Shown piece by piece: positions 1 to 30,050 of a stretch of 64,000 bases of DNA (the first letter of the stretch is position 1; the number at the start of each line of letters is the position of its first letter). The stretch comes from Methanomassiliicoccaceae archaeon. Lineage in GTDB: Archaea > Thermoplasmatota > Thermoplasmata > Methanomassiliicoccales > Methanomassiliicoccaceae. The position numbers and the translations under genes were made by a program. Under the pieces are notes generated by a model. That model had not been told where the DNA came from. It saw only the letters and a list, made by a program, of their open reading frames with translations, and did no database searches. The DNA lies in NCBI GenBank assembly GCA_040776945.1, contig JAXGZN010000001.1, positions 128,001 to 192,000 of the forward strand. Direction: 5' to 3'.

Positions 1-389
1 CGGCCCTCGACGACGAGACCAAGAAGCTTCTGGCCCTCCGCGACGAGATGAGCCGTGACCGCATCGCCTTCCTAAGGCAGGAGTGGTTCCGCTTCCCCCG
101 TCTGGGCGAGAAGTGGAGAAGGCCGCGCGGCTTGCACAGCAAGATGCGCCGCCATATACAATACCGGCCCAACGTGGTCAGCATCGGCTACCGCGGACCG
201 GCCAAGGTACGCGGCCTGCACCCCTCTGGATTCCAGGAGGTCATGGTATGGAACCCCGACCAACTGGACAAGGTTGACCCCAAAGTGCAGGCGGTCAGGG
301 TCGGAGGCAGCGTGGGATTCAAGAAGAGGCAGGCCATCGAGCAAAGGGCCGATGAGCTGGGCATTCGTGTCCTCAACAGGACGGGATGA
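1..389 (+). CDS. rpl32e: 50S ribosomal protein eL32 (5' partial)
   Basis: FLRQEWFRFPRLGEKWRRPRGLHSKMR, GYRGP and RGLHPSG motifs; the frame is open to the window start. Confidence 0.95.
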   Translation, partial: ALDDETKKLLALRDEMSRDRIAFLRQEWFRFPRLGEKWRRPRGLHSKMRRHIQYRPNVVSIGYRGPAKVRGLHPSGFQEVMVWNPDQLDKVDPKVQAVRVGGSVGFKKRQAIEQRADELGIRVLNRTG

Positions 390-15500: not shown

Positions 15501-15592
15501 GAGCCTCCCTCTGCGGGAGGCATGAAATCACTAGCTCCTACGCTTAGCCTGCATCTAGTGTTTTAAAGCATAGTTGGAATACCGTTGTTCAC

Positions 15593-16507
15593 ATGCCGGT
15601 GGTCTCCGCAAGAAAGCTCGTTAAGAGATACGATGGGTTCCTGGCCGTCGACCACATCGACTTCGACATCGAGGAGGGGGAGATCTTCGGCTTCCTCGGG
15701 CCCAACGGGGCGGGCAAGAGCACCACCATGCGCATGGTCCAGGGAGTGTCGCCGGTCACCTCCGGGAAACTGGAGGTGCTGGGCATGGACATCACTCGCC
15801 GCAGCAAGGAGATCAAGGCCCTTATCGGGGTGGCGCCCCAGGAGGATAACTTGGACCCGGACTTCCCGGTCGTGCGGAACCTCACCACTTACGCCCGCTA
15901 CTTCCGCATTCCCGCCGAGGAGGCGGAGAAGCGGGCCAGGCGGCTGCTGGAGTTCATGCAGCTCGAGGAGAAGGCCGACGCGGAGATCGAGGAGCTGTCC
16001 GGCGGGATGAAGCGGCGGCTCATCGTGGCCAGAGCGCTGATCAATGAGCCTCGACTGCTCATACTGGACGAGCCGACCACCGGGCTCGACCCCCAGGCCC
16101 GACACCTCATCTGGGAGCGCGTCCGCGAACTCAAGAGGAACGGCGCCACCATCATCCTCTCGACCCACTACATGGACGAGGCAGAGCAGCTCTGCGACCG
16201 GCTGGTGATCATGGAGAACGGGCGGTTCCTCGTTGAGGGAAGGCCCAAGGATCTTATCCAGCAGGTCGTGGGCCCCTGCGTCCTGGAGATCATCGATCCC
16301 GAGGAGGGCAGGGACATCGAGAGCTATCTCGTGTCCGTCGGCGCCCAGGTGGAGCGCTCGGCCTACCGCATCTACGCCTACTCCAAGCAATGCCAGACCA
16401 TTCAGTCAGGGTTCCGTGAGCGATTCCCGGACACCTATTCAACGGTTCGCTCGGCGACGCTCGAGGACGTGTTCCTGCGGCTCACCGGCAGGAGGTTGAG
16501 AGAATGA
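15593..16507 (+). CDS. ABC exporter ATP-binding protein (NodI/DrrA-like)
   Basis: GPNGAGKST, LSGGMKRR and LDEPTTGLDP motifs. Confidence 0.93.
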   Translation: MPVVSARKLVKRYDGFLAVDHIDFDIEEGEIFGFLGPNGAGKSTTMRMVQGVSPVTSGKLEVLGMDITRRSKEIKALIGVAPQEDNLDPDFPVVRNLTTYARYFRIPAEEAEKRARRLLEFMQLEEKADAEIEELSGGMKRRLIVARALINEPRLLILDEPTTGLDPQARHLIWERVRELKRNGATIILSTHYMDEAEQLCDRLVIMENGRFLVEGRPKDLIQQVVGPCVLEIIDPEEGRDIESYLVSVGAQVERSAYRIYAYSKQCQTIQSGFRERFPDTYSTVRSATLEDVFLRLTGRRLRE

Positions 16508-17307
16508 GCTGGCTCTCCAACATCGATTACGGCGCGGTGTTGGTGTGGAGGCGCAACGCCGACGTGTTCTTCAAGACCTGGAAGACGAACTTCCTGCCCT
16601 CCATCCTGGAGCCGCTGCTGTATCTGGTGGCCATGGGCGCGGGGCTGGGCGGGCTGATCGTAGGCCTGAAGTACGCGGGGCAGGACATCGGCTATGTGCG
16701 CTTCCTCGCCCCTGGCCTGGTGGCCATCTCCATAATGTACGGAGGGTTCTTCGAGTGCACCTATGGTTCGTTCGTCCGGATGCACTACCAGAAGACGTTC
16801 GATGCCATCGTGGCCACGCCGGTCAGCCTGGAGGACGTCATCGCCGGCGAGATCCTGTGGGGGGCGAGCAAGAGCTTCCTCAACTCCACCATCGTGCTGC
16901 TGGTGATCCAGGTCATGGGCCTGACCTTCGTCCCGGAGGTGCTGTTCGCCGCGCCGACCGCGCTCGCCGTTCCGGCGCTGGCCTTCCTCGGAGGGCTTAT
17001 GTTCTCGGCCATCGCCATGATCTTCACCGCGCTGGTGCCCAACATCGACTCGTTCAACTATCCGTTCTACCTCCTGGTCACCCCCATGTTCCTGCTGGGA
17101 GGGACGTTCTTCCCCATATCGCAGCTGGGCGCGGCGGAGCCGCTGGCGTACATATTCCCCCTCACCCATGTCAGCATCCTGGTGAGGGACATGAGCCTCG
17201 GGCTGGTCAGATGGGTCGACCTCGCGTCCTTCATCTATGTGCTGGCGGCCGTCGTGGTGACCTTCATCCCGGCGGTCTATCTCATGAGGAAGCGGCTGAT
17301 CAAGTGA
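16504..17307 (+). CDS. ABC-2 permease (NodJ-like)
   Basis: 6 TM segments; FLAPGL, GTFFP and PLTH motifs. Confidence 0.9.
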   Translation: MSWLSNIDYGAVLVWRRNADVFFKTWKTNFLPSILEPLLYLVAMGAGLGGLIVGLKYAGQDIGYVRFLAPGLVAISIMYGGFFECTYGSFVRMHYQKTFDAIVATPVSLEDVIAGEILWGASKSFLNSTIVLLVIQVMGLTFVPEVLFAAPTALAVPALAFLGGLMFSAIAMIFTALVPNIDSFNYPFYLLVTPMFLLGGTFFPISQLGAAEPLAYIFPLTHVSILVRDMSLGLVRWVDLASFIYVLAAVVVTFIPAVYLMRKRLIK

Positions 17308-17866
17308 TCCGGTCCACGACCACCAGGCGGCCATTGCGGACCTCTACCTTCACCAGCGCGCGTACGGGAACGCCGAACTCGCGCTCCAGCTTCTCGCCGG
17401 CGCTCCCCTTCTCGACGGCGACCAAGACCTCCGCGATCTGTGCTCCGGCCCGCTTAAGGGCCAGAAGGATGGGCCTGAGCGTACCGCCGGTGGACAGCAC
17501 GTCGTCGATGATCATCACGCGCTCTCCCATCCTCACGTCGTTGATGTACATCGATCCTTTGGAGTAACCGGTGGACCTTCCTATCTCGACCTCGCCCAGA
17601 AGGCCGTACCTCCGCTTCCGAGCGACCACGTAAGGTATGCCAGTGCGCAAGGATATGATCGCACCGAGAGGTATGCCCATAGCCTCCGGCGCGAGGATGA
17701 TGTCACAGTCCAGGGAACTGAACCGCAGCATCGCTCCGACAACCTCTTCCAGAACCGCAGGCTCGACCCTGGGCACCCCGTCGGTGATCGGATGTATGAA
17801 ATATTCGTATCCGCCGACGTTGACTATCGGAGCAGCCTCCAGGCTCGATATGAAGCGTTCCATCAT
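17300..17866 (-). CDS. hpt: archaeal hypoxanthine/guanine phosphoribosyltransferase
   Basis: YEYFIHPITDGVP, EAMGIP and IIDDVLSTGGT motifs. Confidence 0.85.
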   Translation of the reverse strand: MMERFISSLEAAPIVNVGGYEYFIHPITDGVPRVEPAVLEEVVGAMLRFSSLDCDIILAPEAMGIPLGAIISLRTGIPYVVARKRRYGLLGEVEIGRSTGYSKGSMYINDVRMGERVMIIDDVLSTGGTLRPILLALKRAGAQIAEVLVAVEKGSAGEKLEREFGVPVRALVKVEVRNGRLVVVDRIT

Positions 17867-17882
17867 GCTCTGCCCGCCGCGC

Positions 17883-18551
17883 CTACTTACCGTCTAGCCT
17901 GGTCCATCCGTTCTTGGTCTTGACGACCTTGCCCTCCGCCTTGAGCTCCTTGACGGTGGACCGCACCAGGGAGAGGGGGACATCGATCTTGAACTGGGAC
18001 CTGAAAGCCCGCTGGATCTCCGCCTCGTCTTTGGCCTCGGCAAGCGTCTTGGGCAACAGCGTACGCATGTCCTCATGAAGGTTCCAAGGGAAGATGAACC
18101 ATGTCCATCTCCCCTCTGGGATGTGTATGGAATAGAAGTCGGGCTCCATTTTCGAGTGCCCGATGTGCAGCAAGGTGGAGGTCTTGATCTCCCGCGGGCG
18201 CTTCTTGAACAGGTGGGCAGTGGCCAGAGTGAGGGACTCTCCGGTGTCCGTGATGTCATCGACTATCAGGACCGCCTCGTCCTTCACGTCCACGCTAAGC
18301 TCCTGGGTCAGCAGCGCCTTACCGTCCTGGTTGGCGGTCACGCCCCAATGTTCGGTCTTCACCGCGTAGAGCTTCCTGACGCTGAGGATGTCGCAGAGCA
18401 ACCTCGCGGGGACCCATCCCCCGCGGGTCAGCCCGACGACCACCGTCGGCTCGAAGCCGCTGGCCCTGACCTGCCTGGCGACATCTGCGGTCCACTTGGC
18501 GATCTCATCGAAACTGACCAACTTGCATCTGAAGCTCTCGACATATCCCAT
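17883..18551 (-). CDS. purine phosphoribosyltransferase (type I PRT)
   Basis: TRGGWVPAR, IVDDITDTGES and WFIFPW motifs. Confidence 0.88.
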   Translation of the reverse strand: MGYVESFRCKLVSFDEIAKWTADVARQVRASGFEPTVVVGLTRGGWVPARLLCDILSVRKLYAVKTEHWGVTANQDGKALLTQELSVDVKDEAVLIVDDITDTGESLTLATAHLFKKRPREIKTSTLLHIGHSKMEPDFYSIHIPEGRWTWFIFPWNLHEDMRTLLPKTLAEAKDEAEIQRAFRSQFKIDVPLSLVRSTVKELKAEGKVVKTKNGWTRLDGK

Positions 18552-18715
18552 TGACAACCCTCGATCCCTCCGATCTCATGGTCTGCCGCATCTCGGCTCT
18601 TGAGATCAGGGACTATGCTGGCAACGGCATGGGAATCATTAATCTTTTCTTCCGGCCGTCGTCCCGACAACGCGCCTGCCGCTCGATCTACCTCCGAAAA
18701 TCCTAGGGCATCCCA

Positions 18716-20419
18716 TCACGGGCTGGTGTCCTTGATCAGGGCCAGCTCACCTTCCCCCACCACCGGGCTCACCGGAATGCCCCTTATCGTGTCCACCAGT
18801 CCGAGTTCCCCTATTTTGAGCTCGGGAGCGGTGAGCAGGGTCTGATAGGACAGCGTGACGAAGGGGGCGGGAAGCGGACAGCCCATGGACCGCAGGAACT
18901 CGGTGATCTCGCGGGCTTTCCTGATCACCTCTTGCCAGGGGTCCGCGGACATCAGCCCTAGGACGGGCAGTTCCAGCCTGACGCTGTCCACTCCGTCGGT
19001 GGCGTAATAGCCGCCGCCCTGGGCGGCCACTGCGTTCATCGCCTGGGCGAGAAGGGTAGAGCTGGTGCCCACTCCGATGAGGTCGTGGGAATCGCACGAA
19101 ACCGATGAGGCGAACGCTCCCCTGTACAGTCCGAAGCCGTTGATGAAGGCCACCGCAGGTTCCGCCGGGCGATGTCGGCCGACCACCGCTATGAGCAGTA
19201 TGTCCCTAGATGGGTCTGCGTCAATGATGCCTTCATGCACACCCATCTCCGCAACCATAGATCCGCTTGATACTTTGTCCGGCATGGCTTGTATGATCCT
19301 CACCGACGCGGTCGGCCGGCGGGATGCGACCCTGAGTAACTGGGGGTCGATCGTAGAGTGGACCGTTTCCGGGGGAACGGCCGTTGGAGCGCAGGCGAAG
19401 AGCGCCGTGCCGTCCTTGGCCACCATCTGGCCATCGATCCAGGTCTCTAGTACATTGAAGGTCTTTAGATCGCTCACGACCGTAAGGTCCGCCGGTCCAT
19501 CGACCTCCACCGATCCGCCGTTAAGTCCATAATGTTCGGCCGGCCACAATGTCGCTGCCCGCACGGCATGGATGGGGTCCATGCCCTTTTCCACTGCCTT
19601 GCGCAGGAGCGAGTCCATATGGCCTTCGGGCATGTCATCGGCCCGCAGCCCGCCAGTTACCAGGATGTGCTTGTTCCTCAAAGCGAACGGGAGCAGGGCA
19701 TCCAGGTTCCCTCCCGCACTTCCTTCCCGGACCATTATCGTCATCCCTTTGCGGTGCTTCTCCTCGGCCTCCCGCGGGTCGGCACACTCATGCTCATTGG
19801 AAATCCCGGCCATGATATACCTATCAAGGTCATAACCTCGGAGGCCGGGAGCATGCCCGTCCACGCGCTTTCCCAACTGTGCTGCGACCTCGATCTTGGA
19901 CATGACTTCAGGGTCCTCGCCCAGCACCCCCTCTACGTTCACGATCTCTCCGAGCGAGACGAAGTCCTCGGTCGAGAGCATGTCCCTGACCTCCTTCCAC
20001 CCGATGACCCCCTCGTTCGTTCCGGCGCTCGACGGGGGGCCTGATGAGGGGACGCTCAAGTAGAATCGAAGCGGCGTGCTCTTCCCGTCCTTCAGAATGT
20101 ACTCCGCGCCCGCCCTGCCCGCTACGTTGGCGGCCTCGCGGGGGTCTGCCACCACCGCGGCGGTGCCGTGGGCCACCGCCAGCTCCGCGAACCGGCATGG
20201 CGTCAAGAGCGAGCGTTCGATGTGCACATGCGCGTCGATCAATCCAGGGAGTATGTATCTCATCGGAGCGGCTATCTTGCGCTCGATCCCCACGACCTTG
20301 CCCTCCCTGAAGTTCACGCAAGCGGGGAACACCTCTCCTCGGACCACGTCGACAAGTTGTCCGTCGACATGCCTCACGGTCATCGAGCCCAGCACACGGT
20401 CGTAAGCGTGGGAGGCCAT
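18716..20419 (-). CDS. ade: adenine deaminase-like protein with degenerate metal site
   Basis: PGLIDAHVHIE, DGHAPGL and EHEC motifs plus C-terminal domain; TDD is replaced by TGG. Confidence 0.8.
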   Translation of the reverse strand: MASHAYDRVLGSMTVRHVDGQLVDVVRGEVFPACVNFREGKVVGIERKIAAPMRYILPGLIDAHVHIERSLLTPCRFAELAVAHGTAAVVADPREAANVAGRAGAEYILKDGKSTPLRFYLSVPSSGPPSSAGTNEGVIGWKEVRDMLSTEDFVSLGEIVNVEGVLGEDPEVMSKIEVAAQLGKRVDGHAPGLRGYDLDRYIMAGISNEHECADPREAEEKHRKGMTIMVREGSAGGNLDALLPFALRNKHILVTGGLRADDMPEGHMDSLLRKAVEKGMDPIHAVRAATLWPAEHYGLNGGSVEVDGPADLTVVSDLKTFNVLETWIDGQMVAKDGTALFACAPTAVPPETVHSTIDPQLLRVASRRPTASVRIIQAMPDKVSSGSMVAEMGVHEGIIDADPSRDILLIAVVGRHRPAEPAVAFINGFGLYRGAFASSVSCDSHDLIGVGTSSTLLAQAMNAVAAQGGGYYATDGVDSVRLELPVLGLMSADPWQEVIRKAREITEFLRSMGCPLPAPFVTLSYQTLLTAPELKIGELGLVDTIRGIPVSPVVGEGELALIKDTSP

Positions 20420-20473
20420 GGACCATACTAGAGAGGGGAACAAAGATATGCTTTTCTAAGAATATGGAACGTT

Positions 20474-20710
20474 ATGCCGTTCCCCCGCGACGTCCTCAAC
20501 CGCCTCCGCTGGACCGATGGCCTCGAAGGCGTGGTGATCACCTATCTCCATCGAGGGGCGCCGGGGGACCGGATGAGCATCAGGGGTGAGGACCTTTTAG
20601 AGCTGGAGAGGTCGTTCTTCGTCACCACCGACAGCAAGATACCGTACCACCGGATCAGGCTCATCGAAAGACGGGGAGAGGTGTTGTACAGGGATAGAGA
20701 AGAAAGATAA
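20474..20710 (+). CDS. DUF504 / MJ1316-type RNA-repair-associated domain protein
   Basis: RDVLNRLRW, YLHRGAPG and IPYHRI motifs. Confidence 0.85.
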   Translation: MPFPRDVLNRLRWTDGLEGVVITYLHRGAPGDRMSIRGEDLLELERSFFVTTDSKIPYHRIRLIERRGEVLYRDREER

Positions 20711-20731
20711 GGAGTGGAAAGGGTTTCCTGC

Positions 20732-21343
20732 TTACCTGGGAGTGCCGCAGTTGGGGCAGTTCCTCATGAACGCGGGGTACTGCACGCCGCAGTTCTTGCA
20801 CTTGATCATCTCTGAGCGCTGCTGCTGAGGGGGCTCGGGGGCGGCGGCGACAGGCGGCGGGGGCGGTGCCTGGTACTGCTGCGGGGGGGCCTGGTGTTGG
20901 CCGGCGGGCGCCTGCTGGGGATACTGTTGGGGCTGTTGATAATATTGGGTAGGGTACTGCTGATACTGGGGCTGGAAGACCTCCTGCAGGCGCACGTATG
21001 CCAGTAGAAGGAATATCCCGGCTATGAACATGAATATCAGACCCAGGACCCCCCAGACCAGCAACTTATCGCTGGCCTCACGGAACTTGCCCTGGTCAAG
21101 AGGCTCGAAGACCGTCTTCCCCATCATATAGAACAGGAAGCCCAGGACCGCCATGGCTATCAGGAAATATATCCCCGAGGGCCACGCGAAAGTGATGAAG
21201 CTGACGATGGCCATGATCAGAGCTACCAGCGCCATTACGCCGGTTATCAGCTGCCCCCAGTACGCGAACTGGCGGGCGTCCCTGGCGGCGGCCGGAAGCC
21301 ATGCGGGCCCGGTGCCGCTTGCTAAGAATGGTATGTTGGGCAT
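20732..21343 (-). CDS. membrane protein with Q/P-rich linker and C-terminal zinc ribbon
   Basis: 3-4 TM segments, QPQYQQYP linker, CKNC...CPNC. Confidence 0.75.
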   Translation of the reverse strand: MPNIPFLASGTGPAWLPAAARDARQFAYWGQLITGVMALVALIMAIVSFITFAWPSGIYFLIAMAVLGFLFYMMGKTVFEPLDQGKFREASDKLLVWGVLGLIFMFIAGIFLLLAYVRLQEVFQPQYQQYPTQYYQQPQQYPQQAPAGQHQAPPQQYQAPPPPPVAAAPEPPQQQRSEMIKCKNCGVQYPAFMRNCPNCGTPR

Positions 21344-21562
21344 ATTTGGTATGTTTGACGACACGCTCTCCCTCCTTGACAATCTGGATAACTAATCTAT
21401 TAACGCTGAATGGTCCTCGCAAATAAATAATCTATCCATTCGATGACGCCTGGCAAAAAATTCCGCGGACCCATGGCCCGCCTGCGCCACCGTTCTTGTT
21501 ATCGATATATTTAATATACGGCAAGAATTACGAAAACAAGAAATAGAAAGGTTGAACGAGTT

Positions 21563-22363
21563 ATGAAGTATGATGAGTTCAAGGCCCTCTATGACCGGCT
21601 CAACACCCATGAGGATGTTAGGGCCCTGGCAGAAGAGACTGGCCTTGATGAGGAGCTTCTCAACGTTATTTACACCCAAAGGACGGTAAGAGAGGCGACC
21701 AAACGATATCATGTAGTTAAGAGGAACGCCCACCGGATGCTGAGGGAATGGAAGAGCGGGACCAGTCTCCTCGATATCTCCAAGAAATGGAACTTTCCTC
21801 CCGTGCTCACCGCCATGCTGATATTCCAGGAGAACGGGTTCTCCAAGAAGCAGTTCTGGAAGTACATTCGGGAACCGGAGACTATACCCAACCCCCGGAC
21901 CAAGCGTGAGATAATCGAGATCACCAAGGCAGACACCATATACTCACCGTGGGGCAACGAATTGCAGTATAAGCGAGGGACCTGGGGCGAAGAAAAGCTG
22001 CATGAGTGGCTAGACTCCCATAACATAACCTACCGGACAGAGAAGGACCTTCGCGGTAAGTTCACTAAAACACCTGACTGCCTCTTGGACGAGCCGCTGA
22101 AGGTCAACGGTTGGACCATCAACTGGATCGAGTCCAAGGCCTCGTTCGGTGATCGCACCGAGTTCAACAAGAACATCAAAGGACAGCTTGGTCAGTACGT
22201 GGACATGTTCGGCCATGGCCTTGTGGTGTACTGGTTCGGGCATGTTGACGAGGTGGACTGTCCGCCCGGCATCGAGATCATCGATGCGAACCTGTGCTCC
22301 ATGGACTGCGAGAAGACCACGGGAGAGGATTTCTGCCCGGAAGAGATAATCGACGACCCCTGA
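21563..22363 (+). CDS. C15orf41/CDIN1-family (TPD) PD-(D/E)xK nuclease
   Basis: N-terminal helical/HTH region, G..GE..L, KTPDCLL, WIESKASFGD, Q..QY...FG.G.VVYWFG. Confidence 0.85.
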   Translation: MKYDEFKALYDRLNTHEDVRALAEETGLDEELLNVIYTQRTVREATKRYHVVKRNAHRMLREWKSGTSLLDISKKWNFPPVLTAMLIFQENGFSKKQFWKYIREPETIPNPRTKREIIEITKADTIYSPWGNELQYKRGTWGEEKLHEWLDSHNITYRTEKDLRGKFTKTPDCLLDEPLKVNGWTINWIESKASFGDRTEFNKNIKGQLGQYVDMFGHGLVVYWFGHVDEVDCPPGIEIIDANLCSMDCEKTTGEDFCPEEIIDDP

Positions 22364-22434
22364 ACAGGGTCTCGTTCTGATTTTTCAATAATCGGTCAGG
22401 CAACCTAAGATACATCGAGCCTTATCCCTGACCG

Positions 22435-23409
22435 ATGCGGGACATCTCCGCCGGAGACCTTGAAAAGTACTGCTACTGCCCCCTGAGCTGGAAGCTGAGC
22501 AGGGCGGGGGGCTTGGACGCCTCGATGGCCGAGGGGGCCGTCCGGCACCGACACATGGCCAAGGAGCTGGAGAACATCGTGAGGGGGGAGTGGCGGGCCT
22601 CGGTGTATGAGCGCGCGGTAATCGTCTCTTCCCTTCTGGCCACTGCCTTCGCTCTCGTGGGCCTTTTCCTTTTCACCTCCGCCGATCTGGCCTTGCAAAG
22701 CAGGGTACTAAGCGTTCTGGCCTTGCTATGGGTCCTCCTGGCGGTCCTTTCCATGTACGCCTCCGCTCGGGCACGGCCGCCCTGGGACAAAAAGAACGGT
22801 GACCTCATCGTCGGCACCTCGGCCATCCTGGCAATGATCATGGCCTTGAGCGCGGTGCCCATCTTTGGGATCAGCAACGATAGGGGGGTGATCGCCCAGG
22901 CAATCGCGCTGGTGCTGTTGATGGGGGCCTCCATGTCCTTGTACCTGTCGCAGGCCAACCAAGATGGCGCGGAGAGGGCCAGGAAACGCTCCAAGGTCCG
23001 AGGCAACATCACCTATATAGGCGAGAACGGGTCCGCTCCTGTCCTCCGGTCGGAGGCGCATGGTCTGACAGGCAGGCCTGATTATATCCTGGAGATCGAC
23101 GGAGGACTGGTCCCGGTCGAGGTGAAGACCGGCCGGGTACCTAGAGGACCGCTTTTCTCCCATATCGTACAGCTCGCCGCCTACTGCCTTCTTCTGGAGA
23201 GCGAGGGCGAGGTGACCCACGGCATACTGAGGTACGGGGACGTCGAGCACATCATCGCCTTCGATGAGAACCTCCGCTCTCTACTGCTGAAGAAACTCGA
23301 TGAGATGAGAACGGCAGAGGCCCTAGGAGAGGTGCATCGCGACCACGGCCGTCCCGGGAAGTGCCGCTCATGCTCCCGCCGGGACCACTGTCCGGAGAGG
23401 CTCGGTTAG
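22435..23409 (+). CDS. solo Cas4-like nuclease with four inserted TM helices
   Basis: YCYCP, then 4 hydrophobic helices, then GRPDY, EVK, QLAAY and CRSCSRRDHC. Confidence 0.85.
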   Translation: MRDISAGDLEKYCYCPLSWKLSRAGGLDASMAEGAVRHRHMAKELENIVRGEWRASVYERAVIVSSLLATAFALVGLFLFTSADLALQSRVLSVLALLWVLLAVLSMYASARARPPWDKKNGDLIVGTSAILAMIMALSAVPIFGISNDRGVIAQAIALVLLMGASMSLYLSQANQDGAERARKRSKVRGNITYIGENGSAPVLRSEAHGLTGRPDYILEIDGGLVPVEVKTGRVPRGPLFSHIVQLAAYCLLLESEGEVTHGILRYGDVEHIIAFDENLRSLLLKKLDEMRTAEALGEVHRDHGRPGKCRSCSRRDHCPERLG

Positions 23410-25196
23410 TCCACGGTCACACTCTTCGCCAGGTTCCTGGGCTTGTCTATCGGGCAGCCTCTCTTCTTCGCCGTGTGGTAGGCGATCAGCTGCACCATTA
23501 CCGTCAGGGGGACGGGAGATAGGATCGGATTGACCCGTGGCAAGCTCACCGTGGAATCCGCTACCCTTGCCAGGTCACCGTCGCCCTCAATGCCGATCGC
23601 GAGTATGGGGCTGTCCCTCGCCGCCACCTCAGATATGTTGGCGAGCATCTTCTCATAGGTATGGTCATTGATGCATGCCGCCACCACCGGCGTTGATGCG
23701 TCCAAGAGCGCCAGGGGCCCATGCTTCAGTTCCCCGGCGGCGTAGCCCTCGGCGTGGATGTACGATATCTCCTTCAGCTTGAGAGCGCCCTCCAGCATCG
23801 TGGGATAGTTGACGTTGCGTCCCAGGAAGAACACATCCCGGGCGGGTACCAGCATTTCTGTTGCCGCCTCTACCTCGTGCGCCCGGTCCAGGACCTTGCC
23901 GATGTAGCGGGGCATGCCTCTCAGCTCTGATGTAAGCTCCCTGATCTCATCCCTACCCATGGTGCGTCGCAGCTGCCCGAGACGTATCCCCAGGAGGTAC
24001 ATGGCCATGAGCTGGGCGGTGTAGGTCTTAGTGGCCGCGACCCCGATCTCCGGGCCCGCTTTGGTGTAGAAAACCCGTTCGACCTCTCTCGATATCGTAC
24101 TGCCGACCACATTGGTCACCGCCAGGGTCGGACAGCCCCTCCGGCGGGCCTCCCGCGCCGCCGCCAGCGTATCCGCTGTCTCCCCGGACTGGGTGAGCAG
24201 CACGGTCAGTGGGCTTTCCCCGGTGCCGGGCGAGTATCGGTATTCCGACGCCAGCTCCACGGTCGTTGGGATCTTGGCCAGGGCCTCGATGATGTACTTC
24301 CCGACCATGGCGGCGTGATAGGACGTCCCGCATGCCACCAGCTTCACTGATGCGGGCTCCCGGTCGATCATCAGGGTTCCCGCCTCCAGGTCGTCAAGGC
24401 TCCCCAGGAGCGAGTTGTGGATGGCGGTTGGCTGCTCGAATATCTCCTTGAGCATGTAATGTTCAAAACCGCCCCGCTTGGCATCATCCACCGTCCAGGT
24501 CACCACGCACGGGTCGCGGTGGACCGGGCGGCCATCATGATCGAAGATATCGACGCGGTCTGACCGTAAGATGACGGTCTCCCCGTCCATCACATACACC
24601 GCCTTGTTGGTATAGTTCAGCATGGCGGTGACGTCCGAGGCCACGATGTTCTCCCCTACCCCAAGGCCGATCACCAGGGGATTTTCCTTGCGCGCCGCCA
24701 CGAGCTCCTTGCCGTCGGCGCGCAGGGCTACCATGGCATAGGTGCCCTTGACCTCCTTCAGGGTTTCCCTAAGCGCTGCATGGAGATCGCCGCGATAGTG
24801 CTTCTCCAGCAGGTGGACCAGCACCTCGGTGTCGGTCTCGGAGGTGAAGATGTGGCCCTCGCCGGTGAGCTCCTCCTTGAGCGCCATGTAGTTCTCGATT
24901 ATCCCATTGTGCACCACTGCGATCTTGCCGGTGCAGTCCAGGAAGGGATGGGCGTTCCGCTGGGATGGTTTTCCGCATGTCGCCCAGCGCGTGTGGCCCA
25001 CTCCGAGTTGGCCGGGAAGCCGGGGCATGTCGGCAGAGAACTTGGTGATCTCCCCTTTGTCCTTGTATATCTGGAGGCCGCTCCCTACAATGGCCACTCC
25101 TGCGGAATCGTAGCCCCTGTACTCAAGCCTCTTCAGACCATCGAGGAGCACCTCCTGCGCCTCTCGGGGACCTGCATAACCAATTATGCCGCACAT
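23406..25196 (-). CDS. glmS: glutamine--fructose-6-phosphate transaminase
   Basis: MCGIIG, EYRGYDSAG, HTRWAT and PRNLAKSVTV motifs. Confidence 0.98.
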   Translation of the reverse strand: MCGIIGYAGPREAQEVLLDGLKRLEYRGYDSAGVAIVGSGLQIYKDKGEITKFSADMPRLPGQLGVGHTRWATCGKPSQRNAHPFLDCTGKIAVVHNGIIENYMALKEELTGEGHIFTSETDTEVLVHLLEKHYRGDLHAALRETLKEVKGTYAMVALRADGKELVAARKENPLVIGLGVGENIVASDVTAMLNYTNKAVYVMDGETVILRSDRVDIFDHDGRPVHRDPCVVTWTVDDAKRGGFEHYMLKEIFEQPTAIHNSLLGSLDDLEAGTLMIDREPASVKLVACGTSYHAAMVGKYIIEALAKIPTTVELASEYRYSPGTGESPLTVLLTQSGETADTLAAAREARRRGCPTLAVTNVVGSTISREVERVFYTKAGPEIGVAATKTYTAQLMAMYLLGIRLGQLRRTMGRDEIRELTSELRGMPRYIGKVLDRAHEVEAATEMLVPARDVFFLGRNVNYPTMLEGALKLKEISYIHAEGYAAGELKHGPLALLDASTPVVAACINDHTYEKMLANISEVAARDSPILAIGIEGDGDLARVADSTVSLPRVNPILSPVPLTVMVQLIAYHTAKKRGCPIDKPRNLAKSVTVD

Positions 25197-25197
25197 A

Positions 25198-26391
25198 TCA
25201 GACCACTACGCTATGATTCTGGAGATTACCGCTCACCCTCACGCCGTCCTCTATCTGACAGCCCGCTCCGACAACCCTGCCGGGAGATATGACCACCCTG
25301 GAGCCGATGATCGCGTCCTGGCCGATCAGCGCTCCAGTGTCTGAGAGCCTGAACACCTCCCGATCGACCACGGCTTGGCTTCTTCCAGTAGGGGCGGACA
25401 GTCCTGGCCCTACCTTCACTCCGTCATCCAGGACGGAGTGGGAGACATGAGAATGGGAACCTATCCGCACGCTGCTCATTATCAGGCAATTGTTGATGTA
25501 GGTGTAGGGTTCGATGATGACCCCGTTGCCTATGCTGGTGGACGACATTATCGTTACATTGGGGCCGATGTCACAGGCCTCGCCGATCGCCACCGGGCCC
25601 TCGATGTATGAGCCAGAGCGTATGCGGCTGCCCTTCCCGATCGATACCGGGCCCTTTATAGTGACTCCGTTCTCCACCGTGCCGTTGATCCCTTGGCCAT
25701 GGAACTCGAGCGCCGACGAGTTGATATTGGGCAGGTCCCAGGGATAGACAGCGTCTATCCACTTGCCCTTGGTCTTGACCGCCGTGAAATCGAGGCGGGA
25801 GATCACGGGCGCAAGGACCTGGGTTATCCCCAGTTCCATGTCGAACTTCTGCTCTAGGAACAGGTCCAGTATGCCGCTCTTGAAGTAATAGACGCCAGTG
25901 TTGATGATGTTGCCGACCCTGACCTCCGGCTTCTCGATGATGTTGTTTATCCTTCCGTCGATTATCTGAACCACGCCATACTTCGCCGGTATCTCGGACT
26001 CGGTCACCACCATCGAGGGGCCCTTTCTCTTGGCCAGCAGGTCTGCTACCAGCTGGGCGTCGATCAAGTTGTCCCCCGCCACGGTGAGAAAGTCCTCACC
26101 GGTGAGGTGTCTGGCCGCCAATGACAAGGCGTGGGCGGTCCCCAACTGCTTGTCCTGAGCTACGTACATTATGCGGGCGCCGAACCGCCTTCCGTCCTCG
26201 AAATGCGAGAGAATGGTGTCCTTGCGGTACCCGACCACCATGATGATGTCCTTAATGCCGTTCTGGACCAAGGCCTCGACGATATAGTCCAGGATCGGCC
26301 GGTTCCCCACCGGGATCATCCCTTTGGGCCTTGACATAGTGAAAGGACGCAGTCTGGTCCCTTCTCCAGCAGCCAGAATAACCGCTTTCAA
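25198..26391 (-). CDS. glmU: bifunctional sugar-1-phosphate nucleotidyltransferase/acetyltransferase (archaeal GlmU-like)
   Basis: ILAAGEGTRLRP..RPK and EKP motifs; C-terminal hexapeptide repeats; next to glmS. Confidence 0.85.
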   Translation of the reverse strand: MKAVILAAGEGTRLRPFTMSRPKGMIPVGNRPILDYIVEALVQNGIKDIIMVVGYRKDTILSHFEDGRRFGARIMYVAQDKQLGTAHALSLAARHLTGEDFLTVAGDNLIDAQLVADLLAKRKGPSMVVTESEIPAKYGVVQIIDGRINNIIEKPEVRVGNIINTGVYYFKSGILDLFLEQKFDMELGITQVLAPVISRLDFTAVKTKGKWIDAVYPWDLPNINSSALEFHGQGINGTVENGVTIKGPVSIGKGSRIRSGSYIEGPVAIGEACDIGPNVTIMSSTSIGNGVIIEPYTYINNCLIMSSVRIGSHSHVSHSVLDDGVKVGPGLSAPTGRSQAVVDREVFRLSDTGALIGQDAIIGSRVVISPGRVVGAGCQIEDGVRVSGNLQNHSVVV

Positions 26392-26557
26392 GCTTCTTCC
26401 TCTTCATGTCCATCCGGCTCTCTGCTCATAAATCTTTTTGGCCAAATGATGCTCCCGCTAAATCGTGGTGTTATCACTTATTATACTGTGCAACAAAGTT
26501 TTAAACTGCTCACAGAGGTTTTATTTCCACTCATTGGATAAATTGTGGGGCAGATAG

Positions 26558-28024
26558 ATGGAAAAGCCGCCTAAGTTGAGGATCCCTTCCGAGATATTCC
26601 AGTTCTTCACCAATCCCGGTGGTCATTCCCTTATCGTGCGCGGCACCGCAGGGGCGGGCAAGACCACCTTCGCCCTGCAGGCCATCGAAGAGCTTTCTCC
26701 GTACCAGTGGGGGTTCTATCATTCCACCCGAGTATCCGATGCCAGCCTGTTGGCTCAGTTCCCATGGCTTAAGGACAGGGGCGATCGCCTGCTTAGGGCC
26801 GGCAGCTTCTCCGACGAGAGCGGTGAGAACGGCAAGAGGACCGGCCTGAGCGATCTAAAAGGGGTCAAGAGCCCCCCGATGGAGATTGCCAAGGTCGGAG
26901 GCCTGGCCATATCCATAGGCAAGGACCTGGGAGAGCTGGAGGCCCTTTATCGATGCATAGAAGGCAATCTGCCCGAGAAGGGACTGGTGGTCATCGACTC
27001 CATCGATGCCCTGGCCGATAAGTTCAGCATCGGATGCTCCAAGCTCGTGAACACGATCCAGAGGGACATCGTTGAGGGCTACGGCTCAAACGTGATGTTC
27101 GTCGTGGAGACCCCCGGCTCGGACCTGGACTATCTTGGGGACGGGGTGGTGAACTTCACCTGCACCGAGCACCATCATCGCCGCTTGCGGGAACTGGAGA
27201 TAATCAAGCTCAGGGGATGCGAGATCCAGCAGCCCAAGTTCATCTTCAGTTTGGACGGGGGACGGGTCCAGGCGTTTGCGCACAACCGCAACCCGGTCCC
27301 TCAGTCGGACCGAGGCCCGTGGAGGCCGTTGGGCGACCTCGATGGTAGAATATCTTCAGGACTTAGGGATCTGGACCACACGCTCAGTGGAGGGCTGGAG
27401 GTCGGGTCCATCACCCTCATCGAAATGGGCCAGGGGGTGCCGGCAAACGTCACCAGCGAACTGGAGTCGGCGCTGGTCTGCAACTTCGTTTCACTGGGCC
27501 GAGGGGTCCTATGGGTCCCCATGAGGAAGGCCTCGGCTGAGAACGCTCGGACCAAGATCGTGCGGCGCGTCCCCGGGGAGGAGATCGATCGACTGGTAAG
27601 GATACCGGAGAAGGCAGAGCAAATGGCCTCGACCGTGAGCTGCGCCATTCCGGTCGAGGGCACCAGTGCTTTCTCTGACTTCAAGTGGCAGAACATCGAG
27701 TATTCGCTGGGATCCTCGATGAGGCCGATGCTGTCCCTGATGGGCCTAGACACCATGCGGTCCATGTATGGGAGCGATGTCAGCGATCAGTTGATGGACT
27801 TCCTGTCCATGGTGCGAAGGAACAATGGCATATTCGTGGCCTTGGCCCCCACGGGCAGCGGGCCAACGGACCGCTTGGCGGACCTCGCCACGGCCCACAT
27901 TAAGATCGAGAGGGTGGGCGGCACGGTCCTTCTCTATGGCGAGGAGCCGTTCACCGAATGTTACGCGTTCGATTTCGAAGAGAAGGAGGCTGGCGGAGAT
28001 GTATCCCTCACCCGCATACTCTGA
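26558..28024 (+). CDS. GvpD/KaiC-like double-domain P-loop ATPase
   Basis: N-domain GTAGAGKTT, VIDS, DGVV and IIKLRG; C-domain SSGLRDLD with degenerate Walker A. Confidence 0.82.
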   Translation: MEKPPKLRIPSEIFQFFTNPGGHSLIVRGTAGAGKTTFALQAIEELSPYQWGFYHSTRVSDASLLAQFPWLKDRGDRLLRAGSFSDESGENGKRTGLSDLKGVKSPPMEIAKVGGLAISIGKDLGELEALYRCIEGNLPEKGLVVIDSIDALADKFSIGCSKLVNTIQRDIVEGYGSNVMFVVETPGSDLDYLGDGVVNFTCTEHHHRRLRELEIIKLRGCEIQQPKFIFSLDGGRVQAFAHNRNPVPQSDRGPWRPLGDLDGRISSGLRDLDHTLSGGLEVGSITLIEMGQGVPANVTSELESALVCNFVSLGRGVLWVPMRKASAENARTKIVRRVPGEEIDRLVRIPEKAEQMASTVSCAIPVEGTSAFSDFKWQNIEYSLGSSMRPMLSLMGLDTMRSMYGSDVSDQLMDFLSMVRRNNGIFVALAPTGSGPTDRLADLATAHIKIERVGGTVLLYGEEPFTECYAFDFEEKEAGGDVSLTRIL

Positions 28025-28033
28025 GGTGTCCTA

Positions 28034-28714
28034 TTGATAAAGGCCACCTTCCCCGAGCATTCCGCCATGCTCATGATCGGAAGCCCGGGCATTGGGATGC
28101 TGGAGTTCGCGGTCAGCATAGCGAAGGACTGGATGGAGCAGGACAGCGTGGTCATATTCATAACCGTGGACCTGCTGCCTTCGGACCTGCTTAACATCAT
28201 GACCTCCTTCGGGGTGTCCAAGGAAGTGCTCGGGCGCAATCTGTTCATCATCGATTACCATTCCTCGCTTCTCGGCTCACTGGACGTCAGCACGAACTGC
28301 AATGGAACGGAGATCAGGAAGGTATCCGACCTTGAGGGCATAATGTTCAACATCTCAACTCTGGCAGAGAGTACAAAGCGGCCGGTGAAGATCGTCATAC
28401 ACTCATTGTCGACCTTGTTCCTTTATAATCAGGTCAACGTGGTCCTAAAGTTCTTCCAGATATCGTCCTCGCGCATCCGGAACGAGTTTGGCACCGCGTT
28501 CTTCACGATCCATGAAGGGGTGCATGACGATAAGACCGTGAACCATCTCATGGCCATTGCGGATGGGGTATTGGAGCTCAAGTTCGATCAGGATCTGAAC
28601 CGAAGGATGAGGGTCCGCAACATGAGGGGATGCGTCACCTCCTCCCAGTGGATACCGTTCGAGATAAAGCAGGCTTCCAACAACCATTCGTCCTCTCTTC
28701 TTGAATGGCAATAG
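28034..28714 (+). CDS. RAD55/KaiC-like single-domain pseudo-ATPase
   Basis: GSPGIGMLEF (Walker A Lys replaced by Met), IVIHSLS, ADGVLEL and RNMRG. Confidence 0.8.
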   Translation: MIKATFPEHSAMLMIGSPGIGMLEFAVSIAKDWMEQDSVVIFITVDLLPSDLLNIMTSFGVSKEVLGRNLFIIDYHSSLLGSLDVSTNCNGTEIRKVSDLEGIMFNISTLAESTKRPVKIVIHSLSTLFLYNQVNVVLKFFQISSSRIRNEFGTAFFTIHEGVHDDKTVNHLMAIADGVLELKFDQDLNRRMRVRNMRGCVTSSQWIPFEIKQASNNHSSSLLEWQ

Positions 28715-28767
28715 CTTGTGTTCGGAAGAGGAAATGAGATGATATTACGGGTTGGATTAAGGCCCGG

Positions 28768-28980
28768 TCACTCGAACTCTTCGGCCGCGATCGTCCCGTA
28801 GATGGAGGCTTTGAAGCTCTCGCGGTTCTGCGCGGTGGCCCGGACATAGGCCTCGCATTGGGTCTTAGGCCTCACTACAAGTCTCTTTGACTGGCAGAAT
28901 ATCAGCCCCTCGTTCACTCCCGCCTCGGGCCTCTTGTCGGAATAGAGGCAGGCAAAGCATAGATATTGGTCTTTGTTCAA
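28768..28980 (-). CDS. small Cys-containing hypothetical protein
   Basis: CFAC...C...C pattern; TTG start; follows glpC on the same strand. Confidence 0.55.
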   Translation of the reverse strand: MNKDQYLCFACLYSDKRPEAGVNEGLIFCQSKRLVVRPKTQCEAYVRATAQNRESFKASIYGTIAAEEFE

Positions 28981-29009
28981 CGGACTTGCCCAAGTTGTGT
29001 AGCTATTTA

Positions 29010-30050
29010 TTAATTCTGCCCTGGGTCCAGTCTGCCGGCTAGGAATGTGGTCAGGTCTTCCACCGGCATGGTCCCGACACGGCCCAGGTTGACCACGCAG
29101 AAAGGACAGGGGGCGATCATTATGTCCGCCCCGGCGTCCTTGGCCGAACGCAACTTCCGGCGGGCCATCTTCTCTGCCACTTCTGGTCGGGATGCTGCCA
29201 CTCCCCCTCCGCCTCCGCAGCAGTCGTCCTGATCCCTGTGCTCGATGACCTTTACGCCAGGGACGCTTTCCAGGATATCCTTGACCATGTCGATCGTATG
29301 CGGGCCCACCACCCGCGCGAGGTGGCAGGGCCGGTGGAGCGCTATCTTCATGGGCGGGGCGCTCGTGTCGAACCTTTCCTCCGATATTTTGGCAGCATGC
29401 AGATGTTCGATGATATGCCAGGCGTCCTTACCGTAAGCGGCGCGCAGCTGGGCGGTGCACCCGGGGCATGCGGTCACTAACCTCGATGTCTTGAGCACGG
29501 CCTTGTTGTTCGCCTCGACCTTTCTCAACTGGTCGGTCGCCCCGATCTTCTCCAACGGCGATCCGCAGCATGACCATGCCGAGGGCACATAGGGTCGGGC
29601 ACCTGATGCCTCAAGCAGCCTGAGGGCGGCGGCGACCGAACCGGGCAGGCGGCCTTCGGCGATGCAGCCTGGGAAGAACACGAGGTCGCCCTCCGATGGA
29701 TATGACTGGGCCGAGGACGGCGGGACCACCGCGCGTCCGGAATCCTCGATGGCCCTTATCATCCTGAGCTGTCCTGCAGGCCGGTCGGCGCCTTCCAGGA
29801 CAATGCTCCTCATCCGCACGAGCGCGGCGGGCAGAGGAAGACGGGAAGGACAGACCTCCTCACAGCGCCCGCAAGTGGTGCACATGTACAACGCGCCCTT
29901 CAAGGCCTTCAGGTGCGGGTCGAAGCGAGGGGCCTCGATCACAAGCCGCCTGGGGCCGGGGAAGGCCTCGCGTCCTTCCTGGGCCAGTACTGGGCATGCG
30001 CGGACACAAGCGCCGCACCGGATGCAGCCGTCCATGGTCCTGGAGGTCAT
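29010..30050 (-). CDS. glpC: GlpC-like Fe-S / CCG-domain subunit
   Basis: CIRCGACVRACP, CTTCGRCEEVCP and two CCG domains; overlaps the glpB stop. Confidence 0.8.
   Translation of the reverse strand: MTSRTMDGCIRCGACVRACPVLAQEGREAFPGPRRLVIEAPRFDPHLKALKGALYMCTTCGRCEEVCPSRLPLPAALVRMRSIVLEGADRPAGQLRMIRAIEDSGRAVVPPSSAQSYPSEGDLVFFPGCIAEGRLPGSVAAALRLLEASGARPYVPSAWSCCGSPLEKIGATDQLRKVEANNKAVLKTSRLVTACPGCTAQLRAAYGKDAWHIIEHLHAAKISEERFDTSAPPMKIALHRPCHLARVVGPHTIDMVKDILESVPGVKVIEHRDQDDCCGGGGGVAASRPEVAEKMARRKLRSAKDAGADIMIAPCPFCVVNLGRVGTMPVEDLTTFLAGRLDPGQN

Follow-up and report, generated by a model that had tools for sequence, protein, structure and literature searches.

The gene at positions 22435..23409 of a 64,000-nucleotide stretch of DNA from a Methanomassiliicoccaceae archaeon (contig JAXGZN010000001.1, positions 128,001 to 192,000; this whole 64-kb stretch is called the window below) encodes a Cas4-family nuclease with a domain of four transmembrane (TM) helices inserted in its catalytic fold, referred to here as TM-Cas4. 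By profile score, motifs, cysteine pattern and fold the protein is a member of the Cas4 family, and it is not a Cas4 with a functional association with CRISPR (clustered and regularly interspaced short palindromic repeats). On balance it appears probable that TM-Cas4 is an integral-membrane nuclease with a cytoplasmic head that acts, independently of CRISPR, on single-stranded nucleic-acid ends near the membrane. TM-Cas4 is genuine and widely distributed, and its structure is unusual; TM domains placed within an enzyme fold, instead of being attached to one, are rare. A large clade annotated plainly as 'CRISPR-associated protein Cas4' is a membrane-inserted, CRISPR-independent core gene of its phylum, and in Thermoplasmatota and Chloroflexota annotation pipelines call genes for CRISPR adaptation too often. 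A natural split version of the protein provides a test of the idea of an iron-sulfur (Fe-S) 'staple', and with TM-Cas4 there is a specific candidate, one that can be expressed, for the processing of nucleic acids at the membrane of archaea, for which almost no enzymes are known.

Searches of Pfam place PDDEXK_1 (1.2e-12) and Cas_Cas4 (2.5e-6) on residues 200-320 of TM-Cas4, where the NCBIfam model TIGR00372 (cas4) also matches with 70.1 bits against a cut-off of 65; the curated cut-offs of PF01930 (28.1 against 22.7) and PF12705 (48.7 against 22) are likewise exceeded. The TIGR00372 match covers model positions ~53-180, the second two-thirds of the model, and the profiles match only the C-terminal part of TM-Cas4 because the insert interrupts the domain. 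A word-indexed homology search (E≤1e-3) found 494 relatives, and among the 120 of them that were listed, 115 are 324-357 amino acids (aa) long with 99-100% query coverage and the other five are shorter pieces; the named relatives are entries for 'CRISPR-associated protein Cas4' from Methanomassiliicoccus or Methanomassiliicoccales.

The open reading frame (ORF) had first been singled out from the sequence alone, and its coordinates and translation bear out all the motifs quoted in that original prediction, namely ISAGDLEKYCYCP at residues 4-16 and EGAVRH at residues 33-38, the core motifs GRPDY (213-217), EVK (229-231) and QLAAY (246-250), and the cysteine triad C310-x2-C313-x5-C319. In an alignment of 80 full-length members with identity down to 27% (A2), Y14, C15, G34, D216, K231, H243, Y250, C310, C313 and C319 are invariant and H38, W99, E229, Q246 and C251 are conserved to at least 90%, and these include every catalytic residue of the proposed intact RecB-type core and the three cysteines of the C-terminal CxxCx5C. 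Of the N-terminal cysteines that had been quoted, C15 is invariant but C13 is variable in the alignment. The clade has signatures of its own in A2, KTGRxPRGPLFSH and HRxHxRPGKC. When the A2 profile is aligned to SSO0001 (4ic1), D216 and E229-V-K231 fall on its GRAD...EIK motifs, which correspond to the Asp99, Glu113 and Lys115 cited in two papers (PMC13621843, PMC12501428). On the type I-C Cas4 8d3l the cysteine triad falls on CNNCSLQSIC, and a weak alignment places 'sdlEkfgYCPLsww...eG..he' on its N-terminus, 'SGLQHFQFCKRQW...EGQHLH'. H243 may be the counterpart of the second histidine ligand reported for Pcal_0546. The catalytic residues are kept in the split bacterial forms described below as well.

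The insert of ~130 residues lies between motif I and motif II. TM helices were called from Kyte-Doolittle (KD) hydropathy (19-residue means, usual threshold 1.6), the distribution of lysine and arginine (K+R) and the helices of a structural model, and the four hydrophobic helices originally described between the two motifs are matched by four KD peaks. The AlphaFold2 model built from A2 has a mean predicted local distance difference test (pLDDT) score of 82.6, a predicted template modelling score of 0.75 and a nuclease core with pLDDT of about 90-97. Its helices span residues 29-80, 85-112, 119-139 and 148-186, and the motif-I helix that carries H38 therefore runs unbroken into TM helix 1, just as the helix of TM helix 4 leads to the first core strand. 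The best Foldseek matches of the model in the PDB are Cas4 chains. VIA-align superposes the model (range 1..324) on 7mi4_A, the Geobacter Cas4-Cas1 (8..200), with Z 19.3 and a root-mean-square deviation of 2.7 A over 174 residues, on 8d3l_I with Z 17.6 and on 4ic1_D with Z 13.7. This superposition extends over the whole domain, and in the model both halves thus close into one Cas4 domain. The four cysteines seem to be placed for one Fe-S cluster, their pattern being invariant and their convergence in space being indicated indirectly by the superposition of the model and, for the split homologue described below, by predicted contacts between N-module residues 20-26 and C-module residues 150-171.

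The charges flanking the helices alternate. Averaged over the 80 sequences, K+R amounts to 3.38 in the N-terminal flank, 0.96 in the loop between helices 1 and 2, 3.67 between helices 2 and 3, 0.30 between helices 3 and 4 and 3.98 in the C-terminal flank, which is the positive-inside pattern of four helices with both ends inside (N-in/C-in) and would therefore turn the nuclease head inward. Both halves of TM-Cas4 are thus predicted from the K+R distribution to be cytoplasmic. A cytoplasmic location is, moreover, what one expects of an Fe-S domain that lacks an export signal. The TM bundle itself is conserved, rich in small residues and packed, and W99 and the small-residue patterns in A2 go beyond what hydrophobicity demands. 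The notion of a membrane-tethered active nuclease is supported by the TM insert, the K+R topology and the complete set of catalytic residues and cysteines, with nuclease activity, membrane insertion and topology alike being predictions.

An exhaustive HMMER scan of 1.84 billion representatives returned 965 matches with E≤1e-3, of which 421 reach E≤1e-10 and 68 reach E≤1e-30, and among the best 150 of the 965 the nearest relatives are membrane forms of several lengths and no soluble Cas4. The sources of relatives are named as Thermoplasmata, Thermoplasmatota, 'Methanobacteriota archaeon' and 'Euryarchaeota archaeon', all with a generic Cas4 or PD-(D/E)XK annotation. Hydropathy peaks were picked to recount the TM helices in 58 full-length proteins that have the N-terminal motif, the core and the cysteine triad. 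The insert contains two helices in 14 of them, four in 31, eight in 10 and an odd number in three, two of which shift with the threshold; a cruder count in 19-residue windows had given odd numbers for some proteins, and all but these 3 of 58 were settled by the recount. The argument that an even number of helices puts both halves on the same face of the membrane therefore holds up well, since 2, 4 or 8 helices are found in 55 of 58 relatives and the K+R pattern is N-in/C-in. Forms with eight helices match the 4-TM profile twice, one match after the other, which indicates an internal duplication. Given its variable size (2, 4, 8 or, in the split form, 1+1 helices), the TM domain seems more like an anchor or platform than a channel of defined build. 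A quick IQ-TREE run (LG+G4) on the nuclease domain, with 139 columns and 165 of 172 rows retained (metagenomic fragments included), gave a tree of low resolution in which 25 of 159 branches are starred and on which the TM classes were labelled from length and a cruder TM count. These classes need 45 changes on this tree and the starred branches force 5-7 per class, and the order of events (2 to 4 to 8 TM; split versus fused) is not recoverable from it.

Among the best 150 representatives about one in three has a length of ~170-180 aa and consists of one N-terminal hydrophobic helix, the nuclease core and the cysteine triad, without the N-terminal Cas4 module. The loci of such C-modules were scanned in one genome per species with a narrower alignment (A4); at least 600 stretches matched, 598 were confirmed and 80 loci were kept, of which 79 are from Chloroflexota (Anaerolineae, Caldilineae, Thermoflexia, Herpetosiphon and others) and one from an 'uncultured bacterium' according to the record titles. 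Among 201 sampled genomes of Chloroflexota, 54 have a C-module at E≤1e-20. At 68 of the 80 loci a same-strand ORF of 75-130 aa matches A2 profile positions ~3-78, that is the N-module (consensus IRASEIGxYAYCARAWWLG...AGEAAHxRHG), followed by exactly one TM helix; 12 loci are without an N-module, and in four of these the fetched DNA ends no more than about 300 nt from the C-module. N-module and C-module are separated by 1-65 nt in 17 clean pairs. K+R is 3.65 before and 0.51 after the TM helix of the N-module (tail of ~3.5 residues), which corresponds to N-in/C-out, and 0.59 before and 3.90 after that of the C-module, which corresponds to N-out/C-in. These charges and the one TM helix per half are therefore those of a gene that was divided within the outer loop of a 2-TM hairpin, with both pieces retained.

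The complex of one N-/C-module pair was predicted from alignments A6 and A5 with a 4Fe-4S cluster, in three runs and with three controls. The interface score ipSAE had a median of 0.80 over the three runs as compared to 0.02 for the best control, and in calibration the mark applied to this score is reached by 116 of 157 solved complexes and by 2 of 215 mismatched pairs. The runs have at least 74% of their contacts in common, with a partner pLDDT of at least 70. In the confident predicted contacts, N-module residues 6-30, among them C20, meet C-module residues 150-171 (with H154, C160, C163 and C169), and TM helix meets TM helix. This prediction supports binding of the two halves, although the pass may reflect likeness to solved Cas4 structures. 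The split form, taken with the even numbers of TM helices, provides strong comparative evidence that N-module and core need to lie on the same side of the membrane and to cooperate. The split pair recurs in the gene order SSB (single-stranded DNA-binding protein) or DUF3467, translin-like gene of ~315 aa, N-module, C-module, NAD kinase, RecN-like gene. The translin-like gene is upstream of the pair at 44 of the 80 loci (Pfam Translin 5e-5; NCBIfam PRK14562-type 266 bits, under the cut-off), DUF3467 is ahead of it at 19 and SSB at 7, and after the pair come NAD kinase at 18 and a RecN-like SMC protein at 12. A search for the translin-like neighbour near the archaeal TM-Cas4 genes and in the window found none.

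As to CRISPR, the description of TM-Cas4 as a solo gene with no cas1 or array nearby was accurate. No CRISPR array is present in the window, in which Tandem Repeats Finder detected one unrelated 18-bp repeat, and the only Cas1 match of the genome is ~132 kb away from TM-Cas4, in a 579-aa frame shared with a canonical Cas4, a Cas4-Cas1 fusion frame (G000:C1:17508-18980, outside the window). Long Cas1 frames of 522-718 aa were seen in several genomes of the order too. Of the 151 order genomes, 41 contain Cas1 (10/47 in family f3, 0/4 in f4, 4/10 in f6 and 17/64 in f7); in the window's genus two of the ten genomes do. TM-Cas4 occurs in 80 of 151 sampled genomes of the order, nearly always as a single match, with 15/23 in family f1, 1/1 in f2, 46/47 in f3, 4/4 in f4, 1/1 in f5, 10/10 in f6 and 2/64 in f7, whose sampled genomes measure 1.0-2.3 Mb, and it is present in all ten genomes of the window's genus. 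The distribution of TM-Cas4 is thus independent of Cas1. PADLOC-DB 2.0 matched TM-Cas4 with Cas4 and Cas1-fusion models and weakly with DruK (2.8e-5), and its two neighbours with none.

The search for the architecture across Thermoplasmatota that had been recommended at the outset yielded relatives in 215 of 301 sampled genomes of the phylum (E≤1e-8), mostly in frames of about 280-650 aa that align from the last TM helices through the nuclease. Where genomes of the window's own family are without TM-Cas4, the two genes that otherwise flank it, coding for a TPD-domain protein and GlmS, lie directly next to each other, ~380 and ~20 nt apart. One locus of the order (L140, G057:C22:1-5500) holds at about 1394-2465 a decaying TM-Cas4 in which just residues 1-146 and 227-323 are recognisable, with TPD and GlmS intact on either side. 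TM-Cas4 has been lost several times, in some lineages cleanly or still incompletely and with the flanking genes retained, and is therefore dispensable. Searches with tblastn found no TM form in 50,697 phage records, and on plasmids 14 matches, all to the C-terminal domain alone over at most 55% of the query and none of them a TM form; IMG/VR gave one weak match to the C-terminal domain and no TM form. TM-Cas4 is a core-like, single-copy, vertically inherited chromosomal gene.

Compared with canonical Cas4 (SSO0001, 4ic1; Pcal_0546, 4r5q; type I-C, 8d3l; Geobacter Cas4-Cas1, 7mi4), TM-Cas4 shares the motif-I histidine, the D / ExK / QxxxY residues, the 1+3 cysteines and the fold (Z 13.7-19.3). 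It differs by the four-TM insert, the lack of a link to cas1, cas2 or an array and its own clade signatures, and, in contrast to canonical Cas4 as part of a mobile defence module, it is passed on as a phylum's core gene. In being encoded apart from CRISPR-cas loci it resembles Solo-Cas4 as far as the available texts describe it (Hudaiberdiev et al., 2017, PMC5704561; M. mazei, PMC12501428), while the M. mazei protein is described in the latter as lacking the RecB motif, which is intact in TM-Cas4. A term search of the main text of PMC5704561 found 'transmembrane' nowhere and 'membrane' once, in a gene name, and neither word occurs in the main text of PMC12501428 as searched. In a full-text literature search (subscription journals outside its coverage) no description of a transmembrane Cas4 was found.

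The PD-(D/E)XK core also relates TM-Cas4 to the Fe-S staple nucleases AddB, Dna2 and EXO5 and to MGME1, with structural matches of Z 9.5-15.9. In AddB, Dna2 and EXO5 an Fe-S cluster ties the N-terminal segment to the C-terminal end, as is proposed for TM-Cas4. Unlike AddB, Dna2, EXO5 and MGME1, which are soluble and helicase-fused or helicase-linked, TM-Cas4 is without a partner helicase, and a membrane domain makes up its stapled loop; in the Chloroflexota form, unlike AddB, Dna2 and EXO5, the staple would join two separate polypeptides. RNase Y and the YacL-type proteins, which combine TM helices with PIN and TRAM domains, have a nuclease head at the inner membrane face anchored by TM helices. 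The YacL-type architecture is mirrored by TM-Cas4 forms of a further family (f43) that carry a TRAM domain, although the catalytic fold is unrelated and the anchor of YacL and RNase Y is N-terminal and not inserted; a literature search on YacL, PIN and TRAM found nothing. EndA and NucA are membrane-associated nucleases with a catalytic domain outside the cytoplasmic membrane and a fold other than PD-(D/E)XK. They share the membrane association with TM-Cas4 and differ from it in fold, the best structural matches of TM-Cas4 all being PD-(D/E)XK proteins, and in the side of the membrane, the head of TM-Cas4 being predicted on the opposite, cytoplasmic side. TM-Cas4 differs from the Cas4, Solo-Cas4, AddB, Dna2 and EXO5 proteins compared here in having a membrane domain inside the catalytic fold.

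The TRAM domain (PF01938) is fused C-terminally in representative P0211 (1.5e-15) and in 4 of 4 sampled f43 genomes (1.1e-10 to 1.6e-15, one 6.1e-6). At the four f43 loci (L047:5929-7884, L142:2182-4305, L143:450-2405 and L144:2067-4247) the N-module is in frame with an 8-TM-nuclease-TRAM body, and in 4 of 4 genomes no ATG, GTG or TTG is found in frame upstream of the N-module, just ATT, ATC or ATA, which suggests a non-canonical start codon or some other unexplained feature. A homology search for longer forms found one 571-aa protein with no informative extra domain, which is weak evidence. Another locus (L052:5998-8694, reverse strand) has an 898-aa frame with ~630 residues ahead of a 2-TM TM-Cas4, for which neither Pfam nor the Atlas gave a match and which may be a real fusion or an over-extended ORF. 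Entries of Methanobacteriota (264-269 aa) and Planctomycetota in the Atlas are candidate further relatives.

In the mechanism that we propose, the N-module (C15, H38) and the core (D216, E229, K231, Q246, Y250) would form one cytoplasmic Cas4 domain, in which C15 and C310/C313/C319 would bind a [4Fe-4S] cluster that staples the two halves, and H38, D216, E229 and the backbone at 230 would bind Mn2+ or Mg2+. On its way out of this domain and back into it, between motif I and motif II, the chain forms two helices, which would extend into the packed four-helix membrane bundle and so fix the enzyme to the inner face, close to which it would cut single-stranded nucleic-acid ends in a divalent-metal-dependent manner. 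Its role would be a CRISPR-independent, chromosomally inherited, non-essential housekeeping one, and candidate processes are repair or handling of membrane-proximal DNA, handling of incoming DNA, or RNA turnover. The characterised Cas4-family enzymes act on DNA, as stated in the available text of two sources (PMC13621843, PMC12501428), and the SSB and RecN-like genes near the split pairs lean towards DNA as well. TRAM, on the other side, is a domain of RNA-modification enzymes and as a standalone protein an archaeal RNA chaperone, again according to the available text (PMC5572242, PMC6705878). The clues point to a single-stranded nucleic acid without deciding between DNA and RNA, and in our view DNA ends are the more likely substrate, by roughly two to one.

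Several observations weigh against a membrane-bound Cas4-family nuclease of this kind or against parts of the proposal. The TM region of the AlphaFold2 model has a pLDDT of just 56-80. The TRAM fusions, the translin-like neighbour and the many RNA-related neighbours suit RNA as well as DNA, and repeated loss and dispensability would equally suit an accessory role, for instance in defence or uptake. No neighbour is conserved across lineages, and therefore no pathway can be named. Moreover, support from RNA libraries (see below) consists of contigs that carry neither strand nor level and could stem from DNA carry-over.

Whether the head instead cuts RNA near the membrane, such as membrane-translated transcripts, as a membrane-tethered ribonuclease or RNA-end processor, is a question raised by the TRAM fusions in P0211 and the f43 genomes, by the translin-like gene at 44 of 80 Chloroflexota loci and by the RNA and translation genes beside TM-Cas4 in other Thermoplasmatota (L15e, S2 with Dus, Trm1, RtcB with archease). 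RNase Y and RNase E are membrane-anchored bacterial RNases that work on a similar principle. However, TRAM and translin folds bind single-stranded DNA too, RNA and translation genes make up most housekeeping neighbours in any compact archaeal genome, SSB (7 loci) and RecN (12 loci) are also close by in Chloroflexota, and DNA is the substrate of the characterised enzymes cited above, so that we regard an RNA-cutting role as doubtful. We think it improbable that TM-Cas4 processes or destroys incoming DNA during uptake, conjugation or virus injection, as part of uptake or innate defence. The inner membrane face would be where incoming DNA first appears, the gene is dispensable, repeatedly lost and almost absent from f7, PADLOC assigns it Cas4 models and a weak match to DruK, and among 20 loci from other families of the phylum one (L036) has genes for a prepilin-type peptidase, a T2SSE-type ATPase and a HerA-like protein next to it. 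Against this, the gene is single-copy, syntenic and vertical and is not found in defence islands, the 113 ORFs that flank these 20 loci (three on each side) include no cas gene or known defence family and, L036 apart, no competence gene either, searches of phages, plasmids and viral contigs yielded no TM form, and a partner able to tell self from non-self DNA is missing. The original suggestion of DNA processing at entry, for uptake or defence, consequently finds little backing in a single-copy vertical gene among housekeeping genes with no uptake or defence locus, and the likeness to EndA/NucA-type entry nucleases drawn with it fails on the head, predicted to be cytoplasmic from K+R, and on the PD-(D/E)XK fold.

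The remaining alternatives carry far less weight. A Cas4 that serves in trans the adaptation by Cas1-Cas2 encoded elsewhere in the genome would accord with the score above the NCBIfam cas4 equivalog cut-off (70.1 against 65) and with the Cas4-Cas1 fusion frame about 132 kb away, yet that adaptation module already has its own canonical Cas4, the window has no array and TM-Cas4 and Cas1 do not go together (4/4 versus 0/4 in f4, 46/47 versus 10/47 in f3, 10/10 versus 2/10 in the genus and 2/64 versus 17/64 in f7), which makes such a role highly improbable. Scarcely credible, in our judgement, is a membrane protein that uses the Cas4 fold for nucleic-acid binding or Fe-S redox sensing and does not cut. 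A viral nucleocapsid protein derived from Cas4 sets a precedent in the available text of one report (PMC4625639), and the TM region is conserved beyond the needs of hydrophobicity (W99, small residues); H38, D216, E229, K231, Q246 and Y250, however, are invariant or at least 90% conserved in the 80 sequences and are kept in the split forms too.

Going beyond the favoured reading of a CRISPR-independent membrane nuclease, it is tentatively possible that TM-Cas4 is the catalytic subunit of an undescribed membrane-bound nucleic-acid machine, ancestral to Thermoplasmatota and shared with part of Chloroflexota, in which an Fe-S cluster staples two anchored halves of one active site. TM-Cas4 might then be the missing nuclease of an archaeal pathway of DNA import or of the chromosome at the membrane, or else the first membrane-anchored RNA-decay nuclease of archaea.

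Table 1. Features of TM-Cas4 and of neighbouring genes, in window coordinates
Feature	Position	Strand	Description	Basis
TM-Cas4, whole ORF	22435..23409	+	324 aa plus stop; Cas4-family nuclease with 4-TM insert	profile matches, conservation, model
N-terminal Cas4 module, residues 1-61	22435..22617	+	C15 = 22477-22479; G34/H38 of motif I, H38 = 22546-22548	
TM helix 1 (predicted), residues 62-80	22618..22674	+		KD 2.48; model helix
TM helix 2 (predicted), residues 91-109	22705..22761	+	near-invariant W99	KD 2.47
TM helix 3 (predicted), residues 125-143	22807..22863	+	K/R-rich loop 110-124 before it predicted cytoplasmic	KD 2.14
TM helix 4 (predicted), residues 151-169	22885..22941	+	helix goes on to residue 186, into the nuclease core	KD 1.98
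RecB-type PD-(D/E)XK core, residues 188-300	22996..23334	+	D216 23080-23082, E229 23119-23121, K231 23125-23127, H243, Q246 23170-23172, Y250 23182-23184	
C-terminal Fe-S ligands C310, C313, C319 (putative)	23362..23391	+	clade signature H301-R302-x-H304 just before	invariant columns
TPD-domain protein, 266 aa	21563-22363	+	71 nt upstream of TM-Cas4, same strand; not shown to be part of the system	PF14811, 3.8e-45
216-aa protein with hydrophobic helices, Q/P-rich low-complexity linker and C-terminal zinc ribbon	20732-21382	-	divergent from the TPD gene; 27/30 order loci	weak Pfam match
GvpD-like / KaiC-like P-loop protein, 488 aa	26558-28024	+	no obvious gas-vesicle genes nearby	GvpD_P-loop 2.6e-13, GvpD_bR2 3.5e-11

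In the window TM-Cas4 converges on glmS, and farther upstream are a gene for a protein with TM helices and a zinc ribbon, a small MJ1316-domain gene, an adenine deaminase and a phosphoribosyltransferase. The order zinc-ribbon gene, TPD gene and TM-Cas4 (both pointing towards glmS) and the oppositely oriented GlmS gene is kept at 30 of 30 other loci of the order, the zinc-ribbon gene being seen at 27 of them and the other three being cut by contig ends. TPD (PF14811) is presumably the family of human C15orf41/CDIN1. The available text of one study describes the C15orf41/CDIN1-type protein as having predicted helix-turn-helix and PD-(D/E)XK nuclease domains (PMC7261414). The TPD gene was detected in 149 of the 151 order genomes and, among 14 control genomes, in Methanosarcina acetivorans alone, and its protein had no sequence relative in a search of the PDB. 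As an obligate partner of TM-Cas4 the TPD protein was rejected, since it is present in 64 of 64 f7 genomes that are nearly without TM-Cas4 and absent beside the 20 loci of other families, where no TPD protein is among the 113 flanking ORFs. The adjacency of the two genes is synteny within the order, not partnership. At those 20 loci the neighbours are L15e (4 loci), S2 with Dus (3), Trm1 (2), RtcB with archease (1) and metabolic genes.

Between the TPD gene and TM-Cas4 an 8-bp inverted repeat (cggtcagg ... cctgaccg, 26 nt apart) at 22393-22434 follows a T-run and extends right up to the ATG of TM-Cas4; it might mark where the TPD transcript ends on its 3' side, or else form a regulatory hairpin. 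Rfam has no match in positions 15000-30000 of the window. The TM-Cas4 stretch was found in DNA runs of sludge and digester metagenomes and in six metatranscriptome libraries, and some parts of it are without a contig in some RNA runs, gaps that carry no conclusion. In three runs the RNA-library contigs start at 21553-21562, just ahead of the TPD start codon at 21563, which would fit a leaderless or short-leader transcript, as far as contigs, which do not show true starts, can indicate. In four RNA libraries from four studies, contigs that start at 21448-21562 and end at 22432-22470 span the whole TPD gene, and others cover parts of TM-Cas4, for example 22691-23600, 22498-22704, 22748-23028 and 22664-23007.

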